Assembly (NCBI GenBank): GCA_017453485.1
Contig: JAFTEW010000055.1
Coordinates: 1-54,104, forward strand
Reading direction: 5' to 3'
DNA: 54,104 bases
From: Alphaproteobacteria bacterium
Lineage (GTDB): Bacteria > Pseudomonadota > Alphaproteobacteria > CAAHEQ01 > UBA3637
Both the position numbers and the translations under genes were made by a program. Shown here one piece after another: positions 2,226-54,104 of this stretch; position 1 is the first letter of the stretch, and each line of letters starts with the position of its first letter. The notes beneath the pieces are model-generated. The model ran no database searches and was not told where the DNA came from. It worked only from the letters and a program-made list of their open reading frames with translations.

Positions 2226-4205
2226 ATGCAGGAAATGAATTTACGGGAAATGGCAACGGCGCTACGGATTTTGTCCGTAGATATGATTGAACGGGCAAAA
2301 TCCGGACATCCCGGAGCCCCGTTGGGGTTGGCCGATGTTGTGACGGTTTTGTGGTCAAAATTTTTACGCTTTGATGCCGCCGTGCCGGATTGGTTTGATC
2401 GGGATCGATTTGTTCTGTCGGGGGGGCATGCTTCGGCCCTGTTATACAGTCTGTTGCATTTAACGGGTAATCCGGACATAACGATGGATGAAATTAAGCA
2501 ATTTCGGCAACTCGGTTCCAAAACGGCCGGGCATCCGGAAAAAACACTGGTTGATGGGATTGATTTTTCAACGGGACCTTTGGGACAGGGCTTGGCCGGT
2601 GCAGTCGGTATGGCTTTGGCTGAACGAATGATGAATGCCCGTTTCGGCGATAATTTAGTCAATCACAAAACATATGTGACTTGTGGTGATGGTGATTTGA
2701 TGGAAGGAATTTCAGAAGAAGCTATTTCTTTGGCTGGGCACTGGCGGTTAAATCGTCTGATCGTCCTTTGGGATGATAATCATATTACGATTGATGGGCG
2801 AACGGATATTGCCACCAGCACGGATATGAAACAACGTTTTGAAGCCAATCATTGGTTGGTTTTATCATGTGACGGGCATGATTATGAATCGATTGAAAAG
2901 GTTTTAGATCGGGCTCAATTATCCGATCGGCCCGTTTTTATTGATTGTCGAACGATTATTGGATTTGGTGCCCCGACAAAATGTAATTCGCCAAAAGTGC
3001 ACGGTTCACCCCTGGGAGAAGAAGAAGTCCGACAGTTGCGTTTGGCATTGAATTGGCCGTATCCGCCATTTGATATACCCGTTTCTGTTCGTGAAGCCTG
3101 GCAGGCTGTCGGTGCCCGTGGGGAAGGGGATCGTCTGCAATGGGAACAACGGGTGACACATGATGGCAATAAGGAACTGTTTTTTGATTATTTAAGCGGT
3201 CTTATTCCGGCCGATTTAACCGAACGTCTGCGGGATTATAAACAAAAATTAATTACGGAAAAGGAGGCTGTTGCAACCCGTAAGGCTTCTCAAAATGTAT
3301 TGGCTGTCCTGACGGAACAAATTCCGTATTTGATCGGCGGATCGGCTGATTTAGCGGGGGCGTGCTATGTCAAAACACCTTCATCGGATGATATATCCCG
3401 CCAAAATTACAGCGGCAACTATATCAATTATGGTATTCGGGAATTGGCCATGGCCGCAATTATGAACGGATTGGCGGCACATGGCGGCTTTATTCCGTAT
3501 GGCAGCACATTTTTATCTTTTGCCGACTATATTAAGCCGACCCTGCGGTTGGGCGCATTGATGGAATTGCAAGAGTTTTTCGTTCTGACACATGATTCTT
3601 TGGGCGTTGGGGAAGATGGACCGACACACCAACCGATTGAACAACTGGCCATGCTAAGAGCAACTCCAAATGTTTTCGTTTTTCGACCGGCTGACAGTGT
3701 TGAGACCGTAGAATGCTATGAAACGGCTTTGATTTTAAAGAATAATGTATCTGTGATGGCACTATCTCGCCAGGCTCTACCGGTCGTGCGCACGGATGCC
3801 CGGGATAATTTATCGGCTCGGGGCGGATATGTTTTGGCCGATACACTGGCTGATCGTCAGGTGACATTGATAGCAACCGGCTCAGAAGTATCATTGGCTT
3901 TGGCGGCAAAAGAGGCTTTGGAAAAAGAAGGAATTGATGCAGCGGTTGTTTCAATGCCTTGTGTGGAATTGTTTGAACAGCAGCCGGTTTCGTATCGGGA
4001 CAATGTTTTGGGAACGGCACCGCGTGTGATCATTGAAGCTGCCTCTACCTGGGGTTGGGATCGCTTTTTATCTGGGGTAAGCGGGGCCGTCATTGGCATA
4101 GATACTTTTGGAGCTTCGGGTAAGGGAAGCGACGTTTTGGCACACTTCGGCTTTACGGTTGAACATATTGTCGAAACAGTCAAAAAAATACGCCAAGGAT
4201 CATAA
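2226..4205 (+). CDS. tkt: Transketolase
   Basis: 659-aa ORF with the N-terminal SGHPGAPLG motif, the TPP-binding GDGDLMEG motif and THDSLGVGEDGPTHQPIE. Confidence 0.96.
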   Translation: MQEMNLREMATALRILSVDMIERAKSGHPGAPLGLADVVTVLWSKFLRFDAAVPDWFDRDRFVLSGGHASALLYSLLHLTGNPDITMDEIKQFRQLGSKTAGHPEKTLVDGIDFSTGPLGQGLAGAVGMALAERMMNARFGDNLVNHKTYVTCGDGDLMEGISEEAISLAGHWRLNRLIVLWDDNHITIDGRTDIATSTDMKQRFEANHWLVLSCDGHDYESIEKVLDRAQLSDRPVFIDCRTIIGFGAPTKCNSPKVHGSPLGEEEVRQLRLALNWPYPPFDIPVSVREAWQAVGARGEGDRLQWEQRVTHDGNKELFFDYLSGLIPADLTERLRDYKQKLITEKEAVATRKASQNVLAVLTEQIPYLIGGSADLAGACYVKTPSSDDISRQNYSGNYINYGIRELAMAAIMNGLAAHGGFIPYGSTFLSFADYIKPTLRLGALMELQEFFVLTHDSLGVGEDGPTHQPIEQLAMLRATPNVFVFRPADSVETVECYETALILKNNVSVMALSRQALPVVRTDARDNLSARGGYVLADTLADRQVTLIATGSEVSLALAAKEALEKEGIDAAVVSMPCVELFEQQPVSYRDNVLGTAPRVIIEAASTWGWDRFLSGVSGAVIGIDTFGASGKGSDVLAHFGFTVEHIVETVKKIRQGS

Positions 4206-4269
4206 AACCACATAAAAAACTTGACGATGAAATGCTTTCGGGTTATGATAATTTCCAGAAAGGGAAACA

Positions 4270-6534
4270 ATGTCCGAAAGCATACGACATGACAAAATTT
4301 CTGTGCGTCAAATCATGCGTGATTTGCGGGAATTAAGCGTCCGTGATTTGACACCCGAAGCTCGGTTGGATAAAATTGTGGCTTTAGTGGCTCGTAAAAT
4401 GCGGGTGGATGTTTGTTCGTGCTATATTGCTCGACCGGGAGATATTCTTGAATTGTGTGCGACTTTCGGATTGGATAAGCGGGCTGTCCATGAAACCTTT
4501 TTGCGGGTCGGGGAAGGCTTGGTCGGTGAAATTGCTCTGCAAAGAAAACCGTTGATGTTTGAAGATGCTTGGGCCCACAGCAGTTTTGTCTATAAACCTG
4601 AAACAAAGGAAAAGGCCTTTAAGTCATTAGCGGGTGTTCCACTCATTCGATCCAATAAATTGCTAGGGGTTTTGGCCGTTCAGACACGTAAAAAGCAACC
4701 TTTTTCCGATGAGGTAATTGAGATTTTAGAAACCATCGGATTGGTGGTAGCAGAAATGTTATCCAGCCATTTATTCAAAAAGGCAGAAACGGTTCTGGCG
4801 CAGACAACAGGTCGGCAAAAAATTGAAGGAACGGGACTAATCTCCGGTTTTGCCGTAGGGCGCGCCGTCATCCATAAGCGTTTGGAACAACCGGTTCAGC
4901 TGTTAGCCAAAGATACACAAAAAGAGGTACAACGATTACTGCAAGCCTTATCACAGGTAGAACAGGAAGTAAATAAAATATTGGCAACTTCCCATATGAC
5001 GGGAAGTCAATCCGATATTTTTGAAACTTATCTGATGTTTATTAAAGATAAGGGATGGATTGCCAAAATGACCAAGGCGATTGAAACGGGATTGACAGCC
5101 GAAGCCGCCGTTCAAAAAGTCGGTGAGGAAGTGACGGATCGGATGGAATTGATGACGGATCCCTATATCAAAGAACGGATTCATGATTTACAGGATTTGG
5201 TCAGTCGTGTCATGCGCCATTTGCATCGGCGGGCAAAAAAAGCAAAACATGGTCGAAAAATGCCGCATAACACCATTTTGGTGGCGCAAAGTATGGGGCC
5301 GGCCGAATTGATGGACTACGACCTGAAAAAAATCAAAGGGATTGTTTTAGAAGAGGGATCCCAAACCATGCACATGGTCATTGTGACGCGTTCTATGAAT
5401 ATTCCCTTGATTTGTGGTATTAAGAACGTGACTGAGATTATATCCAACGGCGATTCAATTGCATTGGACGCAACAAATGGGAATGTTTATTTGAATCCGT
5501 CGGATGATACATTGGATTTATTAAGCGAACAAGCCAATCGTCAGCGGCGGTTGCGGGCAAAATATACGCAGATGAAGGATTTGCCGGCAATTACCCTGGA
5601 TGAGGTTCCTGTTTCTTTGAACATCAATGCAGGATTGTCCCAAGATTTGACCGCCGGTAATTTACCGTATGACGGTATTGGTCTGTATCGGACGGAATTA
5701 CCGTTCATGTTGACGGAGCAATTGCCGAATGCCAAAACCCAAACGGATATTTATCGTCGTGTTTTGATTCAGGCCAAGGATAAGCCCGTTATTTTTAGAA
5801 CATTGGATATCGGTTCGGATAAGGTTCTTCCCTATTTCCGGCATCAAGCCGAAGAAAATCCGGCTATGGGCTGGCGTTCCATTCGGATGACATTAGATCG
5901 GCGAGCTCTGCTTCGAAATCAATTGCGGGCATTTCTGCGGGCGGCGGCTGGTCGGGATTTGTCCATCATGTTTCCGATGATTGCGACCGTGCCGGAATTT
6001 CGGGAAGCAAAAAAGACTCTTATGATGGAAATTGAACAGGAACAAGCCCGGGGTGGCCGATTGCCGAAATCCATTCGGATAGGCTCTATGTTAGAGGTTC
6101 CATCACTGATTTTTCAACTGGAAACTTTATTGCCCGAGGTTGACTTTATTTCCATCGGAACGAATGACTTGACACAGTTTTTATACGCATCGGATCGGGG
6201 AAATCCGACGATTTGGAATCGGTATGATCCTCTATCACCGGCATTTTTGCGGGTTCTGAAATATGTTGTTGAAATATGCCGAAAGGCCCATGTACCCTGT
6301 TCCGTTTGCGGAGAAATGGCCGGTCGCCCGTTAGAGGCTATGACTTTAATCGGCTTAGGGTATCAATCTTTATCAATGAATCCGACGTCTTTGGGGGCGG
6401 TTAAGGCTATGGTACGATCGGTTAATCAACGGGAACTGTCGGATTATTTAAATCAACAATTGTCGCTATCGGTGGATAGTTTGCGTGAACAACTGCGAAT
6501 TTTTGCGTTGGATCACGGTATTTTTATCGGGTAA
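4270..6534 (+). CDS. ptsP: Phosphoenolpyruvate-protein phosphotransferase, EI-Ntr type with N-terminal GAF domain
   Basis: 754 aa with a GAF-like N-terminus, an EI phospho-His region (EEGSQTMHMVIVTRSMNIPLICG) and a PEP-utilising C-terminal barrel (IGTNDLTQF, CGEMAG). Confidence 0.9.
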   Translation: MSESIRHDKISVRQIMRDLRELSVRDLTPEARLDKIVALVARKMRVDVCSCYIARPGDILELCATFGLDKRAVHETFLRVGEGLVGEIALQRKPLMFEDAWAHSSFVYKPETKEKAFKSLAGVPLIRSNKLLGVLAVQTRKKQPFSDEVIEILETIGLVVAEMLSSHLFKKAETVLAQTTGRQKIEGTGLISGFAVGRAVIHKRLEQPVQLLAKDTQKEVQRLLQALSQVEQEVNKILATSHMTGSQSDIFETYLMFIKDKGWIAKMTKAIETGLTAEAAVQKVGEEVTDRMELMTDPYIKERIHDLQDLVSRVMRHLHRRAKKAKHGRKMPHNTILVAQSMGPAELMDYDLKKIKGIVLEEGSQTMHMVIVTRSMNIPLICGIKNVTEIISNGDSIALDATNGNVYLNPSDDTLDLLSEQANRQRRLRAKYTQMKDLPAITLDEVPVSLNINAGLSQDLTAGNLPYDGIGLYRTELPFMLTEQLPNAKTQTDIYRRVLIQAKDKPVIFRTLDIGSDKVLPYFRHQAEENPAMGWRSIRMTLDRRALLRNQLRAFLRAAAGRDLSIMFPMIATVPEFREAKKTLMMEIEQEQARGGRLPKSIRIGSMLEVPSLIFQLETLLPEVDFISIGTNDLTQFLYASDRGNPTIWNRYDPLSPAFLRVLKYVVEICRKAHVPCSVCGEMAGRPLEAMTLIGLGYQSLSMNPTSLGAVKAMVRSVNQRELSDYLNQQLSLSVDSLREQLRIFALDHGIFIG

Positions 6535-18681: not shown

Positions 18682-21225
18682 ATGAAGAATAAAGGAGAAA
18701 AAATGGGATTAAAATATAGAAAAGACTATGTAGCACCGCACTATCGGTTGCCAAAAACAGAATTGGATTTTACATTGGATTTAACCGACACGGTTGTCAA
18801 ATCCAAGCTGTCTTTTGCGGATTACAACATTCAAAAACCGCTGATCTTAAACGGTGAATATATGGAATTGACCGAGATTAAACTGGATGGTAAGGCATTA
18901 CCCGATTCGGATTATCGGGTGGATGAACATACGCTAACATTAAATCCGAACAAAAAATCTTTTGTTTTGGAAACAACAGTGCACATCAATCCGGAAGCCA
19001 ATACCCGCTTGTTTGGGCTGTATGCTTCGGATGGAATGCTGTGCACCCAAAATGAGCCTGAAGGGTTTCGTAGTATCACTTATTATCCCGATCATTCCGA
19101 TGTGCTCAGCCATTGGACGGTGACAATTCATGCCGATCGTCAAAAGTGGCCGGTATTATTGTCAAACGGGAATAAAATTAAGGATTCGGGCAATACGGTT
19201 GTTTTTGAAGATCCGTTTGCTAAGCCCAGTTATTTGTTTGCCTTGGTTGCCGGGGATTTAGACTCCATTCACGATACATTTACAACAAAATCTGGGAAAG
19301 TCGTGAAACTGGGACTTTATTGTGAGACCGGTAAAAAAGACAGACTTTATTGGGCAATGGAAGCTTTGAAAAAAGCGATGGCTTGGGATGAAAAACGGTT
19401 TGGGTTAGAGTATGACCTGAATTCATTTAATATCGTGGCTGTATCGCATTTTAATGCCGGGGCTATGGAAAACAAGTCATTGAATATTTATAATGATGCG
19501 GCATTGTTGGCATCGAAAGATACGGCTACGGACACGACATTTGAATATATTGAACATGTTGTCGGGCACGAGTATTTCCATAATTACAGTGGTGATCGTG
19601 TCACATTACGCAGTTGGTTTGAATTGTCCCTGAAAGAAGGCTTTACCGTCTATCGTGATGAAGAGTTCGGATATGATACACGGTCACGGGCCGTAGGACG
19701 GATTGACGATGTTGTGACTTTACGGACATTCCAGTATCCGGAGGATGACGGCCCTCTGGCCCATCCGGTGCGGCCGGATTCGTATCAGGAAATTGATAAT
19801 TTCTATACAACAACCATCTATGAAAAAGGGGCAGAAGTTATCCGGATGCAACAGGCGATCGTTGGGGATAAAGCCTTTCAAAAGGGGTGTGATATTTACT
19901 TTAAGCGTCATGACGGGCAAGCCGTTACCATTGATGATTTTGTTAAAGCAATAGAAGATGGTTCTGGTGTGGATTTGACGCAGTTTAAATTATGGTATTC
20001 AACACCCGGTCGTCCCAAAGTCAATGTGACGACAAAATGGGACAAGGGCGTGTTTACGGTTCACCTGAAACAGTCACATAAAACTTGTCCGAAACCGTTT
20101 GTCATTCCGCTTCATTACGGATTGGTCGGGAGCAACGGAAAAGATATCAAAACCGGAACGTTTATCCTGAAACAAAAAGAAGAAACATTTGAATTTAAAG
20201 GGCTGAAAGAAAAGCCGGTGCTATCCGTTAATCGGGCGTTTACGGCCCCCGTTGATGTTGAAATATCCTATACCAAACCGGAAAGGTTATTGTTGATGAC
20301 ATATGATTCCGATTTGTTTAATCGATATGATGTTGGTCAGCAATATGCGCTGGACAGCATGGTTGATATGGTGCATCAGAATCGAACGGAACCGGATATG
20401 GATGTAATTCGGGCTTTGGGGTCATATCTGTCGCAACCGAATTTGGATAAAGCCTTTTTGGCACGGGCAATCATTTTGCCGACAGAGGGTGATATGATCG
20501 GTCGTTTGGATATGGTTAATGTGGAAACAGTTAAGGCTGTTCGTCGTGTTATGCGTCAGGCGTTTGCCGATACTTATTGTGATGAATTAAAAGCCATTTA
20601 TGATAACAATCAAACACCCGGCCCATATTCACCGGATGCGGAGCCGGCGGCCAAACGTGCTTTAAAGAATGTGGCGTTGGGGTATTTGGCTTTGACAGAA
20701 CACAAAGATTTGGTTTGGCAACAATACCAAAAATCGGATAATTTGACGGATCGGATATCGGCCCTTAATATATTGGTCAATCAAAATTTACCGCATAAGG
20801 AAGAAGCCCTTGCCGATTTCTATCATCGGTATGACGGGGACGATTTGGTTTTGAATAAATGGTTTGTAATTCAGGCTATGGAACCGGTGGAAGAGACTTT
20901 GGATACGGTCAAAAAACTGTTGGATCATCCGGTCTTTGATTATAAGAATCCGAATAAAGTGCGGGCTCTGTTGGGTGCTTTCGGACGCAATTTGACTGCT
21001 TTTAACCGGGCCGACGGAGAGGGATATCGCTTCTATGCCGGACAATGCGCTTTACTGGATCGAATCAATCCGAAAATCACGTCGAATTTGTTGACTGCCT
21101 TTGCCAAATTTAAAAAATTTGATGTGGCCCATCAGGCGGCTGTTCGGGCGGCATTGAATGAGCTCTTGGCTTTGCCGACATTGTCGGTCAATGCTCGGGA
21201 AACGGTGGAACGTATTTTGGCTTAA
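18682..21225 (+). CDS. pepN: Aminopeptidase N
   Basis: 847 aa with GAMEN (NAGAMENKS) and the zinc motif HEYFHNYSGDRVT...WFELSLKEG. An alternative start is the ATG at 18703. Confidence 0.95.
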   Translation: MKNKGEKMGLKYRKDYVAPHYRLPKTELDFTLDLTDTVVKSKLSFADYNIQKPLILNGEYMELTEIKLDGKALPDSDYRVDEHTLTLNPNKKSFVLETTVHINPEANTRLFGLYASDGMLCTQNEPEGFRSITYYPDHSDVLSHWTVTIHADRQKWPVLLSNGNKIKDSGNTVVFEDPFAKPSYLFALVAGDLDSIHDTFTTKSGKVVKLGLYCETGKKDRLYWAMEALKKAMAWDEKRFGLEYDLNSFNIVAVSHFNAGAMENKSLNIYNDAALLASKDTATDTTFEYIEHVVGHEYFHNYSGDRVTLRSWFELSLKEGFTVYRDEEFGYDTRSRAVGRIDDVVTLRTFQYPEDDGPLAHPVRPDSYQEIDNFYTTTIYEKGAEVIRMQQAIVGDKAFQKGCDIYFKRHDGQAVTIDDFVKAIEDGSGVDLTQFKLWYSTPGRPKVNVTTKWDKGVFTVHLKQSHKTCPKPFVIPLHYGLVGSNGKDIKTGTFILKQKEETFEFKGLKEKPVLSVNRAFTAPVDVEISYTKPERLLLMTYDSDLFNRYDVGQQYALDSMVDMVHQNRTEPDMDVIRALGSYLSQPNLDKAFLARAIILPTEGDMIGRLDMVNVETVKAVRRVMRQAFADTYCDELKAIYDNNQTPGPYSPDAEPAAKRALKNVALGYLALTEHKDLVWQQYQKSDNLTDRISALNILVNQNLPHKEEALADFYHRYDGDDLVLNKWFVIQAMEPVEETLDTVKKLLDHPVFDYKNPNKVRALLGAFGRNLTAFNRADGEGYRFYAGQCALLDRINPKITSNLLTAFAKFKKFDVAHQAAVRAALNELLALPTLSVNARETVERILA

Positions 21226-47919: not shown

Positions 47920-48594
47920 ATGACAAAAGAAAAAAAGCATACATTAAAGACTTATTTTTTTACGGGATTGTTGGTGACGACTCCGATTGCCGTGACATTT
48001 TATTTGGCGGTCCAGTTGTTCAATTATGTGGATAACCATGTGACAGCCTTGATTCCGACAAAATATAATCCGGAAACATATTTACCTTATGGCTTGCCGG
48101 GATTGGGTGTTGTATTGTTATTGGTGTTTTTGACATTGATCGGTATGTTGACGGCTAACTATGTCGGGCGATCCTTATTGAAATTCGGTCAGACCCTGAT
48201 AGAAAAAATGCCGATTATTTCCGGCATCTATAATGCTTTTCGTAAGATTTTTGAAACGTTGTTGAGTCCGGGAAAAAATACCGCTTTTCGGCAACCTGTT
48301 TTGGTTGATTATCCCCGACAGGGTATGAAGACAATTGCTTTTTTGACCGGCCCTGTTTATCGGGAAATTCAGGATGTATCTGCTGATGAACTGGTAAGTG
48401 TTTATGTGCCGACAACACCTAACCCCACATCGGGATTTTTGGTCTATGTCCCCAAAAAAGATATCGTTCCGTTAAAAATCGGAGTGGATGAGGCCTTAAA
48501 GATTATTTTATCCATGGGCATTATCAATCCGGACGATACGCCGGCCCGTAAAAAAGCTTTTCAACGTAAAGCACGCAGTTTGATTAAACGATAA
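47920..48594 (+). CDS. DUF502 domain membrane protein
   Basis: Two N-terminal TM helices, PIISGIYNAFRKI and the TTPNPTSGFLVYVPK motif characteristic of DUF502. Confidence 0.8.
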   Translation: MTKEKKHTLKTYFFTGLLVTTPIAVTFYLAVQLFNYVDNHVTALIPTKYNPETYLPYGLPGLGVVLLLVFLTLIGMLTANYVGRSLLKFGQTLIEKMPIISGIYNAFRKIFETLLSPGKNTAFRQPVLVDYPRQGMKTIAFLTGPVYREIQDVSADELVSVYVPTTPNPTSGFLVYVPKKDIVPLKIGVDEALKIILSMGIINPDDTPARKKAFQRKARSLIKR

Positions 48595-49325: not shown

Positions 49326-49402
49326 CGGAACGTGGCTCAGCCTGGTAGAGCACTACGTTCGGGACGTAGGGGTCGCTGGTTCGAATCCAGTCGTTCCGAC
49401 CA
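49326..49402 (+). tRNA. tRNA-Pro (anticodon CGG), CCA encoded
   Basis: Manual cloverleaf: acceptor cggaacg/cgttccg, D arm gctc-agcctggta-gagc, anticodon stem ctacg/cgtag with loop ttCGGga, T arm gctgg-ttcgaat-ccagt, discriminator A, then CCA. Confidence 0.92.
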
Positions 49403-50872: not shown

Positions 50873-50920
50873 TCTGTTTGGGTCGTATCAAGCATAAAAG
50901 AGAAATTTCGAAACCCCAAA

Positions 50921-50955
50921 AGCCGGAAATAAAAGACTTATTCCCGGCTGTTTTG
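50921..50955. terminator. Bidirectional terminator hairpin between convergent genes
   Basis: Stem agccggaaat / attcccggct (one mismatch) with a 9-nt loop, then gttttg. A-rich on the other side. Confidence 0.5.
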
Positions 50956-50972: not shown

Positions 50973-51161
50973 CTAAGCCGCAACTTCTTCCCGTTGGCAG
51001 GGACAGGCCTTTTCTTCCGTGAACCAAACCCGTTCGTCAAATTCGGATTTTTTGCCCTTATTGAATTGGCTATACGGACGGAAATAGCCCATGACCCGTG
51101 TCCAACATTCAACCGGTTGACGTTGCGATTCGTTTGCCTTTAAAATTTCTTGATCTGTCAT
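50973..51161 (-). CDS. Stand-alone 62-aa protein resembling the glycyl-radical C-terminus of class III (anaerobic) ribonucleotide reductase NrdD
   Basis: The ATG at 51161 lies 6 nt after aggagg. VECWTRVMGYFRPYSQFNKGKKSEFDERVWF matches the NrdD C-terminal pattern (..SR[IV].GY.RP...WN.GK..E...R..F), including the radical Gly in RVMGY. Confidence 0.6.
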   Translation of the reverse strand: MTDQEILKANESQRQPVECWTRVMGYFRPYSQFNKGKKSEFDERVWFTEEKACPCQREEVAA

Positions 51162-51242
51162 GTGATGCCTCCTGATGATGACGAATACCACTGTATCGTA
51201 TAAAAGGGGCATCGTCAAGAAAAAAATAAAGCCCGATCAAAT

Positions 51243-52226
51243 TTATGCTAAATCTCCCCGTAAAGCAGCAATGGTAAAGTTGAAGTAATCTCGGCATGAA
51301 TTGGCCAATCCGACAGGATCTGAAAATAATGCGATAACTCCGTTGGCCAATACATCTGTCCCGGGATGAGGATACTTTACCCGAAAAGCCGAAATATTTG
51401 TTATCAGGCGTTCATTATAGCATTCAATAAAGCGCATATATCCGGCCATTAAGTCGAATACGGTTGCCCGGGGTGATAATAATATGGTGTCGGGTTTCAA
51501 AAAACAGACATTCTCCGGCATTGATATTATCTCGGCAACTGTCAACGGATTTCGCGGAATAAAGATATTTTTTGAAATAATATGTTGAAAAATTTGTTTA
51601 AATTGCCGAACAACCGGGATTGATCCCATAACGGATAATCGAATCGGGCAGGCGCTTTTTAATCTTAGAATGGATCCGACTTGGGTGGCTATACCTAAAC
51701 GGGAAACAGATAATTTTTGCCGACCGGTGGAAAACAGCAACTGGTTAAGTGATTTAAAGGATTGATAAAAGGTCTCATAATTCGGTGAAAGTCGCCCTAG
51801 ATTTTGAAGCAACCGATCCATCAGTAATCCTGAAATTTCGGGCCGTAATTGACGAATGGCCTCTTGATATTGTTGTTGGCGGCGATACAAATCGTGGTAG
51901 TGATATTTGTTCAAACATTGTATCAACAGGTCATCTTGAATAGCCCGACAATAATCAGTTTTTCCTTTTTGAAAATAGGATTGATAAACCTCTTGTGCCT
52001 GGCACAATAAATCGGCTTGATAATTGGCCCTGCGGATAATGGTATCACATTGTTTTTGATTGGTTTCATAGGCGTTGATTAGATTGTCGTATGTTGCCAG
52101 CAGATGTGCGGATTCTATCGAATTATCCCCTGTGGGCGCTAATTTATTTTGATGCCGTTGTTTCATTGATTGATTCCTAAATGGATGGTATGCAAACAAG
52201 ATTTTCCCTTCAACATTAAATAACAT
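51243..52226 (-). CDS. Hypothetical protein (327 aa), first gene of the operon divergent from the repressor
   Basis: Clean ORF with an alternative start at the ATG 52166, which is preceded by aggaat. No motif recognised. Confidence 0.5.
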   Translation of the reverse strand: MLFNVEGKILFAYHPFRNQSMKQRHQNKLAPTGDNSIESAHLLATYDNLINAYETNQKQCDTIIRRANYQADLLCQAQEVYQSYFQKGKTDYCRAIQDDLLIQCLNKYHYHDLYRRQQQYQEAIRQLRPEISGLLMDRLLQNLGRLSPNYETFYQSFKSLNQLLFSTGRQKLSVSRLGIATQVGSILRLKSACPIRLSVMGSIPVVRQFKQIFQHIISKNIFIPRNPLTVAEIISMPENVCFLKPDTILLSPRATVFDLMAGYMRFIECYNERLITNISAFRVKYPHPGTDVLANGVIALFSDPVGLANSCRDYFNFTIAALRGDLA

Positions 52227-52273
52227 AATTTGTTTTTAAAATAGAATAAAATCCTCTTTTTGTTTCTTTTATA

Positions 52274-52316
52274 AACATTTTTTGTTTAAAATGCAATATA
52301 AAAAACAAAAAATGTT
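52274..52316. promoter_or_regulatory. Perfect 14-bp inverted repeat with a 15-bp spacer: candidate operator in the divergent promoter region
   Basis: aacattttttgttt (52274-52287) and aaacaaaaaatgtt (52303-52316) are exact reverse complements. The repeat lies between the divergent genes at 52226(-) and 52354(+). Confidence 0.45.
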
Positions 52317-52353
52317 ATTTATTTCTGTTTTTTTTTGTGTTATGTTAAAAACC

Positions 52354-53055
52354 ATGGGGAAAAGAAGTAATAAAAACGATTGGTTAACGCGTCGGTTACG
52401 GGAAATCAAAAAGCCAAAAAATGCATTGGCTCACTTTATCGGTATCCCGCAACAGCATATTAACAATTTGATAACCGGAAAATCAATTACCCCGCAACGA
52501 ATCGAAAAAATTTCCGAATTTATGGATATTGATAAGGCTTCGCTGTTTGAATTTTATGCCGGCAATATTGATGAGGAGCAATTACTGTCCGGACGAAATG
52601 AAAAAACTTTCCCGGTGAAAAGTATCCCTGTCGTCGGGTTTGTCGCGGCTGATGTTTGGCAAAGTCCGGATAATTGGGATAAAAATGATCTTTACCGGGT
52701 TTATATTCCATATGATGAACGGCTTGTGAATAAACGGGTTTTTGCTTTGGAAGTCAAGGGGAATGCCATGGATTTGGTTTACCCGGAAGGAGCCTGCGTG
52801 TTATGCGTGACCTTGGACGATTACACATCGGTTTTCGGCCCCCCAGAGAGCGGTAAAAAGGTCGTCGTGCGTCGGGTTCGGACATCCGACGATTTGGTTG
52901 AAATCACCGTTAAAGAATTTGTGCAAAATGATACGGGCACTTTTTTGGTGCCGCGGTCATCTGATCCGTCTGTCGGTCCTGTCAAATATACGGAACAGAG
53001 CGATAATCAATCAGAAATTATCGCTGTTGTTGTCGCCTCCTATCGGTGGGAGTAA
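52354..53055 (+). CDS. Lambda-CI/LexA-like repressor: XRE-type HTH plus S24 peptidase-like domain with the nucleophile Ser replaced by Ala
   Basis: HTH region (KKPKNALAHFIGIPQQHINNLITGK) and an S24-like C-terminus ALEVKGNAMDLVYPEGACVLCV...VEITVKEFV...IIAVVVASYR. The G-[DN]-S-M motif reads GNAM, while the general-base Lys (TVKEF) is kept. Confidence 0.75.
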   Translation: MGKRSNKNDWLTRRLREIKKPKNALAHFIGIPQQHINNLITGKSITPQRIEKISEFMDIDKASLFEFYAGNIDEEQLLSGRNEKTFPVKSIPVVGFVAADVWQSPDNWDKNDLYRVYIPYDERLVNKRVFALEVKGNAMDLVYPEGACVLCVTLDDYTSVFGPPESGKKVVVRRVRTSDDLVEITVKEFVQNDTGTFLVPRSSDPSVGPVKYTEQSDNQSEIIAVVVASYRWE

Positions 53056-53086: not shown

Positions 53087-54104
53087 CTATTTACAAATGA
53101 CACCAGCCATACCAGAGTATCCGTCCGGTCTCCCACTGTAAATACCACCATTTGCCATACATTCTCCGCCCTGTCCCCAATAGGAATAATCATTTGCCGG
53201 ATTGTGACCATGTGGTAAAGCTGATATTTGCATTTTTATCGTCTGAAATTCAGAACAGTTCAGTAGCGATTTTCCGATAGCCTGACACCAACTTTGTGCG
53301 CCGTAATAGGATAAATATCCCCAGGTGCAGTTTTTACCGCCATCAGCCGGCCGACACCAAGAGCGCAAATCGGATGCCGAATTGAAGTAATAGGTTGTCC
53401 CGTTGATAGTTGCCGTCTTCGGATTGGCCTTTTCACAAATGTTCGGTGTTTTGGTCCCGCCGTAATTACAGAAATATCCCTCCGGACAGCCGCTGACGGA
53501 TGAACAGGATTGTCCCGTCGGTTTACATTGACCTTTGCCGTCACAGGTTCCGGCTTGTCCGGCGGACTCGCAAGGTGTTCCCGATGGCAGGAACGTATGT
53601 GTTTGATTGCCATTGGCATCTTCTTCACACGTCATACACGGTGATAGAGCACACGTTTGCGGTTCATCCTCCCCTTCACCGGATTCCGATTTCTTTGTCA
53701 GCGTATTACTGAACACAAAGGCGATTTTATTGGCTTCGCCTTGGTCACAGGAATCGGATTCACCGTTGATGGCAACGTCCTCCGGGACTTTCCAATCCAT
53801 ACCCTTAATCCGTTCACAAACTTCGTCATTCATATTTGATACGATAATGCCGAAAGCCCCGTCATCATATCGTGCCGTTTCTACGCCAAAGGCACCGCTG
53901 ATGGATAGGTTCCCATTCGCGTCTTTCCATTCCGGCAGGGTCAGGCTCCCTTGGGTCGTCAGTTCCGTGCTGGCCGTCACCGCCATCTGTGATACAGCCC
54001 CCAGAATTGTATTGGCATTGGATTTATTGATGGCATAGCGATACCCCGCTATTCCCCCGATGGTTAATACCCCCATGATGGCCAGAGTCCCCAACATCTC
54101 TACC
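53087..54104 (-). CDS. Second prepilin-like / cysteine-rich protein, paralogue of 8940-10232; its 5' end runs off the window
   Basis: Reading from the window edge, VEMLGTLAIMGVLTIGGIAGYRYAINK matches gene 8940 almost exactly. A similar small head domain follows (VCERIKGMDW...INGESDSC...IAFVFSN), then a different Cys/Gly-rich C-terminal region. Confidence 0.75.
   Translation of the reverse strand, partial: VEMLGTLAIMGVLTIGGIAGYRYAINKSNANTILGAVSQMAVTASTELTTQGSLTLPEWKDANGNLSISGAFGVETARYDDGAFGIIVSNMNDEVCERIKGMDWKVPEDVAINGESDSCDQGEANKIAFVFSNTLTKKSESGEGEDEPQTCALSPCMTCEEDANGNQTHTFLPSGTPCESAGQAGTCDGKGQCKPTGQSCSSVSGCPEGYFCNYGGTKTPNICEKANPKTATINGTTYYFNSASDLRSWCRPADGGKNCTWGYLSYYGAQSWCQAIGKSLLNCSEFQTIKMQISALPHGHNPANDYSYWGQGGECMANGGIYSGRPDGYSGMAGVICK

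Follow-up and report, generated by a model that had tools for sequence, protein, structure and literature searches.

How would a phage-type repressor hold a gene in check, if the residues for its SOS-dependent self-cleavage appear to be lost and no prophage surrounds it? This question is raised by contig C37 of an alphaproteobacterial genome of 1.17 Mb (98.6% complete), whose close relatives are metagenome assemblies of pig gut and other animal guts. The whole contig of 54,104 nucleotides (nt) was analysed and is called the window here. At its right end, an open reading frame (ORF) of 62 amino acids (aa), an ORF of 327 aa, an AT-rich gap and a repressor gene follow each other, and a pilin-like gene closes the contig. 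The answer that we favour, with confidence moderately above even, is a self-contained and SOS-blind switch resembling the immunity region of lambda, in which the repressor, acting on an operator O2 and additionally on O1, would silence the divergent gene of an orphan protein, with a further operator O3 serving cooperativity and autoregulation (coordinates in Table 1). The part of this statement that concerns the repressor and its operators is held with greater confidence than the whole.

The repressor had been described in a first-pass annotation, made from the bare sequence, as a protein with a helix-turn-helix (HTH) and an S24 domain, and both models indeed match above their cut-offs, HTH_3 with 26 bits against 23 (HTH at ~aa 19-60, recognition helix region IGIPQQHINNL at 52438-52470) and Peptidase_S24 (PF00717) with 38.6 bits against 23.3 over aa 112-227. 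Its best family is PHROG 4 of CI-type repressors (E 8e-21), and it shares 26-27% identity with staphylococcal phage CI proteins. As in lambda CI, P22 C2 and the staphylococcal phi11-type CI, the HTH is followed by S24 and the motifs align column for column, as found in an alignment of the repressor with E. coli LexA, lambda CI and 14 database homologues. In this alignment, the nucleophile column of LexA S119 and CI S149 contains no Ser and is occupied by Ala138 (GCC, 52765-52767; motif GNAM), and Lys187 (TVKEF, 52912-52914) is kept in the general-base column of LexA K156 and CI K192, in agreement with the earlier reading of GNAM for G-x-S-M with a retained Lys. What that reading had missed is the loss of the cut site, since the sequence VGFVAAD places Ala99-Asp100 (52648-52653) at the scissile column of LexA A84-G85 and CI A111-G112, where the Ala-Gly is gone. 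With both the nucleophile Ser and the scissile Ala-Gly absent, neither half of the self-cleavage reaction remains. Exchange of Ser for Ala is established to abolish cleavage in LexA (S119A) and in CI, and the laboratory non-cleavable mutants comprise LexA S119A and K156A and CI ind-. Unlike these mutants, the window repressor carries the Ala nucleophile and the Ala-Asp bond by nature. That it would be incapable of RecA-stimulated self-cleavage, as predicted in the first pass, is thus supported by two losses instead of one. A canonical LexA (Ala-Gly, GDSM, Lys) and RecA are encoded elsewhere in the genome, which places the repressor, with its cleavage motifs lost, outside the SOS system of its host; a GAAC-N7-GAAC box precedes lexA.

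Among homologues, these losses are arranged in steps within the same alignment. P0010 (47% identical to the window repressor) and all more distant homologues possess the canonical Ala-Gly, GxSM and Lys. The window repressor, P0005 (97%) and P0006 (78%) have AAD or SAD at the cut site and G[ND]AM at the nucleophile with the Lys kept, and because P0005 and P0006 come from independent assemblies, Ala138 is not an assembly error. In P0007-9 (53-55% identical), the cut site reads QNR or QDR, the nucleophile motif GSGF, GSAF or GNGF, and the Lys is changed to Tyr. The ratio of nonsynonymous to synonymous substitution rates (dN/dS) is 0.06 for the repressor overall and 0.00-0.03 for its HTH part, and for the dead S24 part it amounts to 0.08 between the window and the orthologous locus L001 and to 0.17 between the loci L045 and L046. 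The dead S24 domains are still under purifying selection, and the simplest reading is that they now serve only dimerisation and cooperativity. A clean natural series thereby leads from an SOS-cleavable CI/LexA-type repressor to what would be a pure DNA-binding and oligomerising protein, with the cut site and Ser lost first and the Lys next, and with operators and partner gene fixed throughout. Such a series is useful for understanding how immunity switches uncouple from DNA damage and become domesticated. In a related contig, L048, the repressor ORF (4890-5420) stops at residue 176, inside the dead S24, with its 400-aa partner gene intact; this truncation results from further decay or else from an error in assembly.

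A natural S24 repressor without the Ser is not new by itself, and MEROPS lists 'non-peptidase homologues' of S24. The window repressor resembles them in having an S24 fold that is kept under selection with the catalytic Ser replaced and in its predicted blindness to SOS. It differs in that it has also lost the cut site and a sister lineage the Lys, stepwise within a small clade, and in being carried by a gut bacterium of small genome, with a guarded gene that is no phage lytic operon.

The second line of evidence concerns the operators. A perfect 14-bp inverted repeat had been proposed as the operator, and it exists as described (52274-52287 / 52303-52316, 15-bp spacer), its exact arm occurring nowhere else in the 1.17-Mb genome. 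However, it is better read as two dyads, each arm being a 13-bp AACA-TTTTT-TGTT (AACA-N5-TGTT), with a third copy nearby. Three such sites are found inside 95 bp at this locus as compared to 74 in the whole 1.17 Mb; the window contains six, where 1.5 are expected, and none of 100 shuffles reached six. No difference is found in the blocks ATATAAACATTTTTTGTTTA and AACAAAAAATGTTATTTATTT, made up of O2 and O3 plus flanking bases, between the window and L045, L046 and L048, whose repressors are 53-55% and partner proteins ~20% identical to those of the window, and in which the sequence between the two blocks differs and is 3 bp longer. This cross-locus invariance is the decisive evidence for the dyads as predicted operators. 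The proposal of an operator candidate is strengthened both by its conservation in distant orthologous loci and by its location within the spacer of the divergent promoter. Next to the gene of the canonical relative P0010, the same dyads recur.

The leftward promoter, of sigma-70-like type and putatively assigned from sequence and alignment, has a -35 hexamer that becomes a perfect TTGACA in the L045/L046/L048 group. For the repressor, the candidate -10 sits 7 nt before the ATG, and this spacing is kept in the window, L001, L045 and L046 (four of the five aligned loci). Because the -10 is so close to the ATG and a Shine-Dalgarno sequence is lacking, a leaderless-type repressor mRNA is suggested. 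At lambda PRM, the repressor gene is likewise without a Shine-Dalgarno sequence and of leaderless type, and the window repressor gene resembles it in this respect. A precisely defined pair of operator and promoter, as far as prediction can define it, is thus offered by the module.

Operation of the switch can be pictured as follows. The HTH-S24 repressor would bind the AACA-N5-TGTT dyads, presumably as dimers held together by the dead S24 domains. Since O2 lies between the leftward -35 and -10, bound repressor would exclude RNA polymerase and keep the orphan gene off. O3, at ~30 bp or three helical turns from O2 and near position -44 of the repressor's own leaderless-type promoter, could provide cooperative binding and autoregulation, and O1 in the leader would add a third site in the lineage of the window. 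RecA-stimulated cleavage would be excluded as a means of release because the nucleophile is Ala138 and the cut bond Ala-Asp, and release would have to follow another signal, for which an antirepressor, proteolysis or dilution are candidates. The guarded product would be a rapidly diverging, basic, cytoplasmic orphan protein, probably encoded by a costly or conditionally useful accessory gene, a costly activity being suggested by the tight guarding of the gene. The 62-aa ORF behind it, apparently a recent duplicate of the detachable radical subunit of the anaerobic ribonucleotide reductase (RNR) NrdD and near-identical to the housekeeping copy, would most likely give extra supply, probably from a promoter of its own.

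Compared to lambda CI-type systems, the locus has in common the divergent promoters, here tentatively assigned, which share several repressor operators, with one operator inside the repressed promoter. Unlike a lambda-type switch, it is located outside any prophage, and the divergent gene encodes an orphan of 318-400 aa and not a small Cro; this orphan gives no HTH match, and thus a small Cro-like counter-repressor is not found as the first divergent gene. Its sites also differ from lambda-type operators, being 13-bp dyads positioned 30-33 bp apart. Operators of phage 434 are 14-bp ACAA-N6-TTGT sequences, and the window sites resemble them as short dyads that have ACA/TGT as outer bases around an AT-rich centre and are used with an HTH_3-type domain. 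The spacing in the window is N5, and the likeness, for which the Pfam HTH_3 match was the sequence comparison made, is one of type only.

A similar site was noted elsewhere in the genome. The promoter of the NAD kinase gene nadK, which diverges from lexA on contig C3 (~19375-19405), reads TTGACA-AAAAACAAAAAATGTGT-TAGAAT, and its spacer holds AACAAAAAATGTG, which matches O2/O3 at 12 of 13 positions and has almost the register seen in the orphan promoter. The nadK promoters of same-genus genomes without the repressor have no such site. This may be a possible second target of the repressor or a chance occurrence.

Table 1. Features of the divergent locus and its surroundings in the window
Feature	Position	Strand	Basis and remarks
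Repressor, 233 aa	52354..53055	+	HTH_3 and degenerate S24 matches
Orphan gene, 318 aa from TTG 52199 (327 aa if ATG 52226)	51243..52199	-	ORF, orthologue comparison, dN/dS
Putative operator O3, AACAAAAAATGTT	52304..52316	.	Dyad AACA-N5-TGTT; centre ~44 bp upstream of repressor start; invariant in five loci
Putative operator O2, AACATTTTTTGTT	52274..52286	.	Occupies the whole 17-nt spacer between leftward -35 and -10
Operator-like O1, AACATAATTTGTT	52222..52234	.	In predicted 5' leader of orphan gene; in L001 AACATTATTTGTT
Putative leftward promoter, -35, TTGCAT	52291..52296	-	Read from sequence and alignment
Putative leftward promoter, -10, TATAAA	52268..52273	-	Read from sequence
Candidate rightward promoter, extended -10, TGtTATGTT	52338..52346	+	Read from sequence
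Stand-alone NrdD glycyl-radical tail, 62 aa, RVMGY	50973..51161	-	NRDD match, paralogue comparison
Promoter-like TTGACG-17-TACAGT upstream of tail	51190..51218	-	Kept in L001
Hairpin and U-run 3' of tail, candidate intrinsic terminator	50912..50950	-	12-bp stem, -17.9 kcal/mol, z-score -1.9
tRNA-Pro(CGG)	49326-49402		

The guarded gene most likely starts at the TTG, because a 59%-identical orthologue (L001-L003) has an in-frame stop upstream of this codon and because a Shine-Dalgarno sequence precedes it (GAAGGGA/AAAGGA; AAAGGA in the orthologue). The intergenic region, originally given as 127 bp, accordingly measures 154 bp. The protein is basic (net charge +11) and predicted to be helical in its N-terminal half, and no transmembrane or hydrophobic segment was found in it. 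In keeping with the first-pass statement that it matches nothing known, the orphan and every member of its family had no match in Pfam, NCBIfam, PHROGs and PADLOC, and a sequence-profile search of the PDB returned nothing at E<=5. Two relatives were found among 5.8 billion proteins, a profile search over 5.8 billion proteins gave five matches, and phmmer, run exhaustively against 1.84 billion representatives, gave four, all of them close relatives or fragments; about seven representatives of the orphan family turned up among 5.8 billion proteins. Proteins of 400 aa, encoded divergently from repressors of the P0007-9 type, are its remote homologues, collinear and ~20% identical, with a shared C-terminal motif G.DVL..G..A...P....YFNF...L.GDL. 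A dN/dS of 0.28 between the window and L001 and of 0.16 between L045 and L046 accompanies the finding that the orphan is a real gene under purifying selection.

Repressor and orphan are divergently paired at every locus found, and the pairing of the 400-aa homologues with P0007-9 repressors defines repressor plus orphan as the conserved unit. Both were missing from the genomes representing the nine other species of the genus and from 15 further genera of its family. L045, L046 and L048 are same-genus contigs (ParE/GyrB 93% and GltX 86% identical to those of this genome), and in L045 and L048 the module adjoins gltX, where the window's genome (G000) has sodA. The flanks in these loci are chromosomal (gltX, parE/gyrB), and no phage or integrase features lie near the module, whose neighbours are without PHROG matches. 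The module is accessory, located at different sites within one genus, with no visible mobility genes. Synonymous divergence (dS) between the window and L001 is 0.28 for the repressor as compared to 0.94 and 0.93 for the orphan and the tail gene, respectively, a threefold jump across the intergenic region, which may point to a recombination breakpoint within the operator region or close to it.

Several of these observations weigh against the switch as proposed. Due to the difference in dS, repressor and orphan may have separate histories. A role of the orphan is proposed without homology or fold support, as AlphaFold2 gave a mean pLDDT (predicted local distance difference test) of 44 from the single sequence and 40 from a six-sequence alignment, models that are unusable. 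The promoters were read by eye, and a consensus scan did not call them. The geometry of the half-sites is unusual, with two full dyads 30-33 bp apart as compared to one classic 14-17-bp site. Finally, the early stop in the L048 repressor could mean decay in some lineages.

Among other explanations, it is possible, though rather unlikely, that the orphan is a toxic or anti-phage effector of the abortive-infection or addiction type, guarded by the repressor and freed by a phage or stress signal. An accessory module that occupies different sites within one genus would suit such an effector, as would the extremely fast divergence of the orphan (20% identity between lineages of the same genus with ParE/GyrB at 93%), the apparently tight repression via several predicted operators, and a neighbourhood of other orphans and a hypervariable surface-protein family with 28 copies. 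However, the orphan is without a PADLOC match and the repressor has only a weak match at the level of the HTH (PDC-M69A, 4.7e-5), no enzymatic or membrane domain can be recognised in the orphan, and its dN/dS below 1 gives no sign of positive selection at the present resolution.

The locus might instead be the immunity region of a decaying prophage, with the repressor and the orphan as leftovers of CI and an early-lytic gene and with the motif loss as erosion without present function. The PHROG 4 assignment and the likeness to staphylococcal phage CI would be expected in this case, and so would the lambda-like divergent promoters with multiple operators, the truncated repressor of L048, the lineage-specific patch around tRNA-Pro and the presence of NrdD tails in prophages of the same bacterial family (L040). 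Against erosion stands strong purifying selection, with dN/dS at 0.06 for the repressor, 0.08-0.17 for its dead S24 and 0.16-0.28 for the orphan; since selection is seen on all parts, plain decay is unlikely. Operators are moreover invariant across lineages, and the ORFs are intact in independent assemblies. Nearby phage, integrase and attachment (att) features were not found, including an att-like repeat of the tRNA-Pro end, for which a search was made. Searches of IMG/VR with the orphan, a 400-aa relative and a repressor alignment gave only HTH-level matches and one spurious match in a giant-virus-like contig, with no relative of the orphan, and GenBank phages contained no relatives of the module beyond the HTH level.

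A bolder interpretation, to which we give little credence, sees in the locus a new type of two-gene, SOS-independent bistable module, in which the dead S24 would have become a docking surface for the orphan as antirepressor and/or effector, with rapid co-evolution of both proteins, and in which a captured spare RNR subunit would tie nucleotide supply to the switch. The values cited for docking and co-evolution are the dN of the S24 part as compared to that of the HTH (0.15 vs 0.03) and the 20% identity of orphans within the genus. Most worthy of attention in the locus are the stepwise loss of cleavage motifs under unchanging operators, an orphan family that appears tightly guarded, and an RNR subunit that the module has captured.

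This subunit is encoded by the 62-aa ORF, whose earlier designation as an NrdD tail was upheld by a match to the last ~30 positions of NRDD (PF13597; 32.3 bits, cut-off 26.2, profile positions 531-561) that contains TRVMGYFRP. The housekeeping nrdD on contig C28 (~2590-4850) is itself in two pieces, a 684-aa body that has no radical loop of its own and ends at a TGA after the Zn ribbon and, after a Shine-Dalgarno sequence, a separate 61-aa ORF with TRVMGY, followed by nrdG for the activase; NrdR-box-like palindromes are located upstream. The split of NrdD recurs in every family member examined, and additional tails are frequent. Over the first 49 codons, the window tail and the C28 tail are the same protein, differing at 6 of 147 nt, all synonymous, whereas their last 12 residues differ. 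As the paralogues are closer to each other than the window tail is to its L001 orthologue (19 of 147 nt; dN/dS 0.01), gene conversion or very recent copying is suggested. The tail gene is a lineage-specific addition and a paralogue of the genome's own radical subunit.

A two-gene operon of orphan and tail had been proposed in the first pass, and the two genes are indeed adjacent and co-oriented, but the conserved unit comprises the repressor and the orphan only. The tail gene has its own AGGAGG Shine-Dalgarno sequence downstream of the promoter-like site, and no tail gene lies near the members of the 400-aa group, both of which argue for the tail as an add-on to the module. It is possibly read through from the leftward promoter and probably also expressed alone; the candidate terminator behind it is partly conserved in L001.

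Stand-alone glycyl-radical segments are known from GrcA (YfiD) of E. coli and Y06I of phage T4, which act as autonomous spare parts for pyruvate formate-lyase. The 62-aa protein is similar to these in being apart from the catalytic body and in existing beside a housekeeping copy. It differs in belonging to a class III RNR instead of pyruvate formate-lyase and in serving, presumably, a host enzyme that is already two-piece, so that it duplicates a normal subunit and is no rescue fragment for a single chain. The searchable literature yielded neither a split class III RNR nor an NrdD spare part; a split class II RNR (NrdJa/b) is known (PMC9669993). The second NrdD radical subunit in an accessory context adds to the case for this subunit as an exchangeable part of cells and phages.

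Further tails were observed in other genomes of the family. In four other genera (L026, L029, L032 and L036), a second orphan NrdD tail lies directly beside rnhA, encoding RNase HI, which is a conserved setting on the chromosome, apart from the nrdD operon. In G011, a divergent NrdD tail (~48% identical; L040, 4962-5150) is located in the head module of a prophage, between genes for an endolysin and a head-maturation protease and near those for the portal and the large terminase. GenBank phages gave no match to the NrdD tail. The nrdD start codon on C28 is overlapped by an AACA-N5-TGTT site (4844-4856) that is peculiar to this genome; at this position, relatives in other genera, most of them without the repressor, have near-misses.

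An operon dedicated to repairing or supplying the two-piece anaerobic RNR, in which the orphan would load or exchange the radical subunit and the repressor would sense, for instance, oxygen exposure, could draw on the adjacency and shared orientation of orphan and tail in the window and L001-L004, on the near-identity of the tail to the housekeeping copy and on the site over the nrdD start codon, but is very improbable, being weakened by the tail-less sister modules that have the same repressor type and operators, by the tail's own conserved promoter-like site and Shine-Dalgarno sequence, by the extra tails of other genera beside rnhA or in prophages without orphan or repressor, and by the number of such sites genome-wide (74), due to which the single one at nrdD may be chance.

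As for the wider surroundings, the trio had been placed next to a tRNA, and a tRNA-Pro(CGG) is indeed found on the left side of the tail gene. Around it, between 48595 and 50872, three further ORFs of 215 aa (minus strand), 294 aa and 128 aa are without family match, and the start of the 294-aa ORF resembles a signal peptide. Synteny with same-genus genomes stops at 48594, after a DUF502 gene (47920-48594), and the module lies within the patch that follows; in G001 and G004, the gene after the synteny break matches contig C57 instead. On the other side of the repressor, the gene at 53087-54097 (minus strand) encodes a protein with a pilin-like N-terminus, comprising a hydrophobic helix, and a Cys-rich variable C-terminal domain. 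This family has 28 copies in the 1.17-Mb genome and 7-33 matches in each other genome of the genus, and since its copies are often located at contig ends, it probably breaks the assembly.

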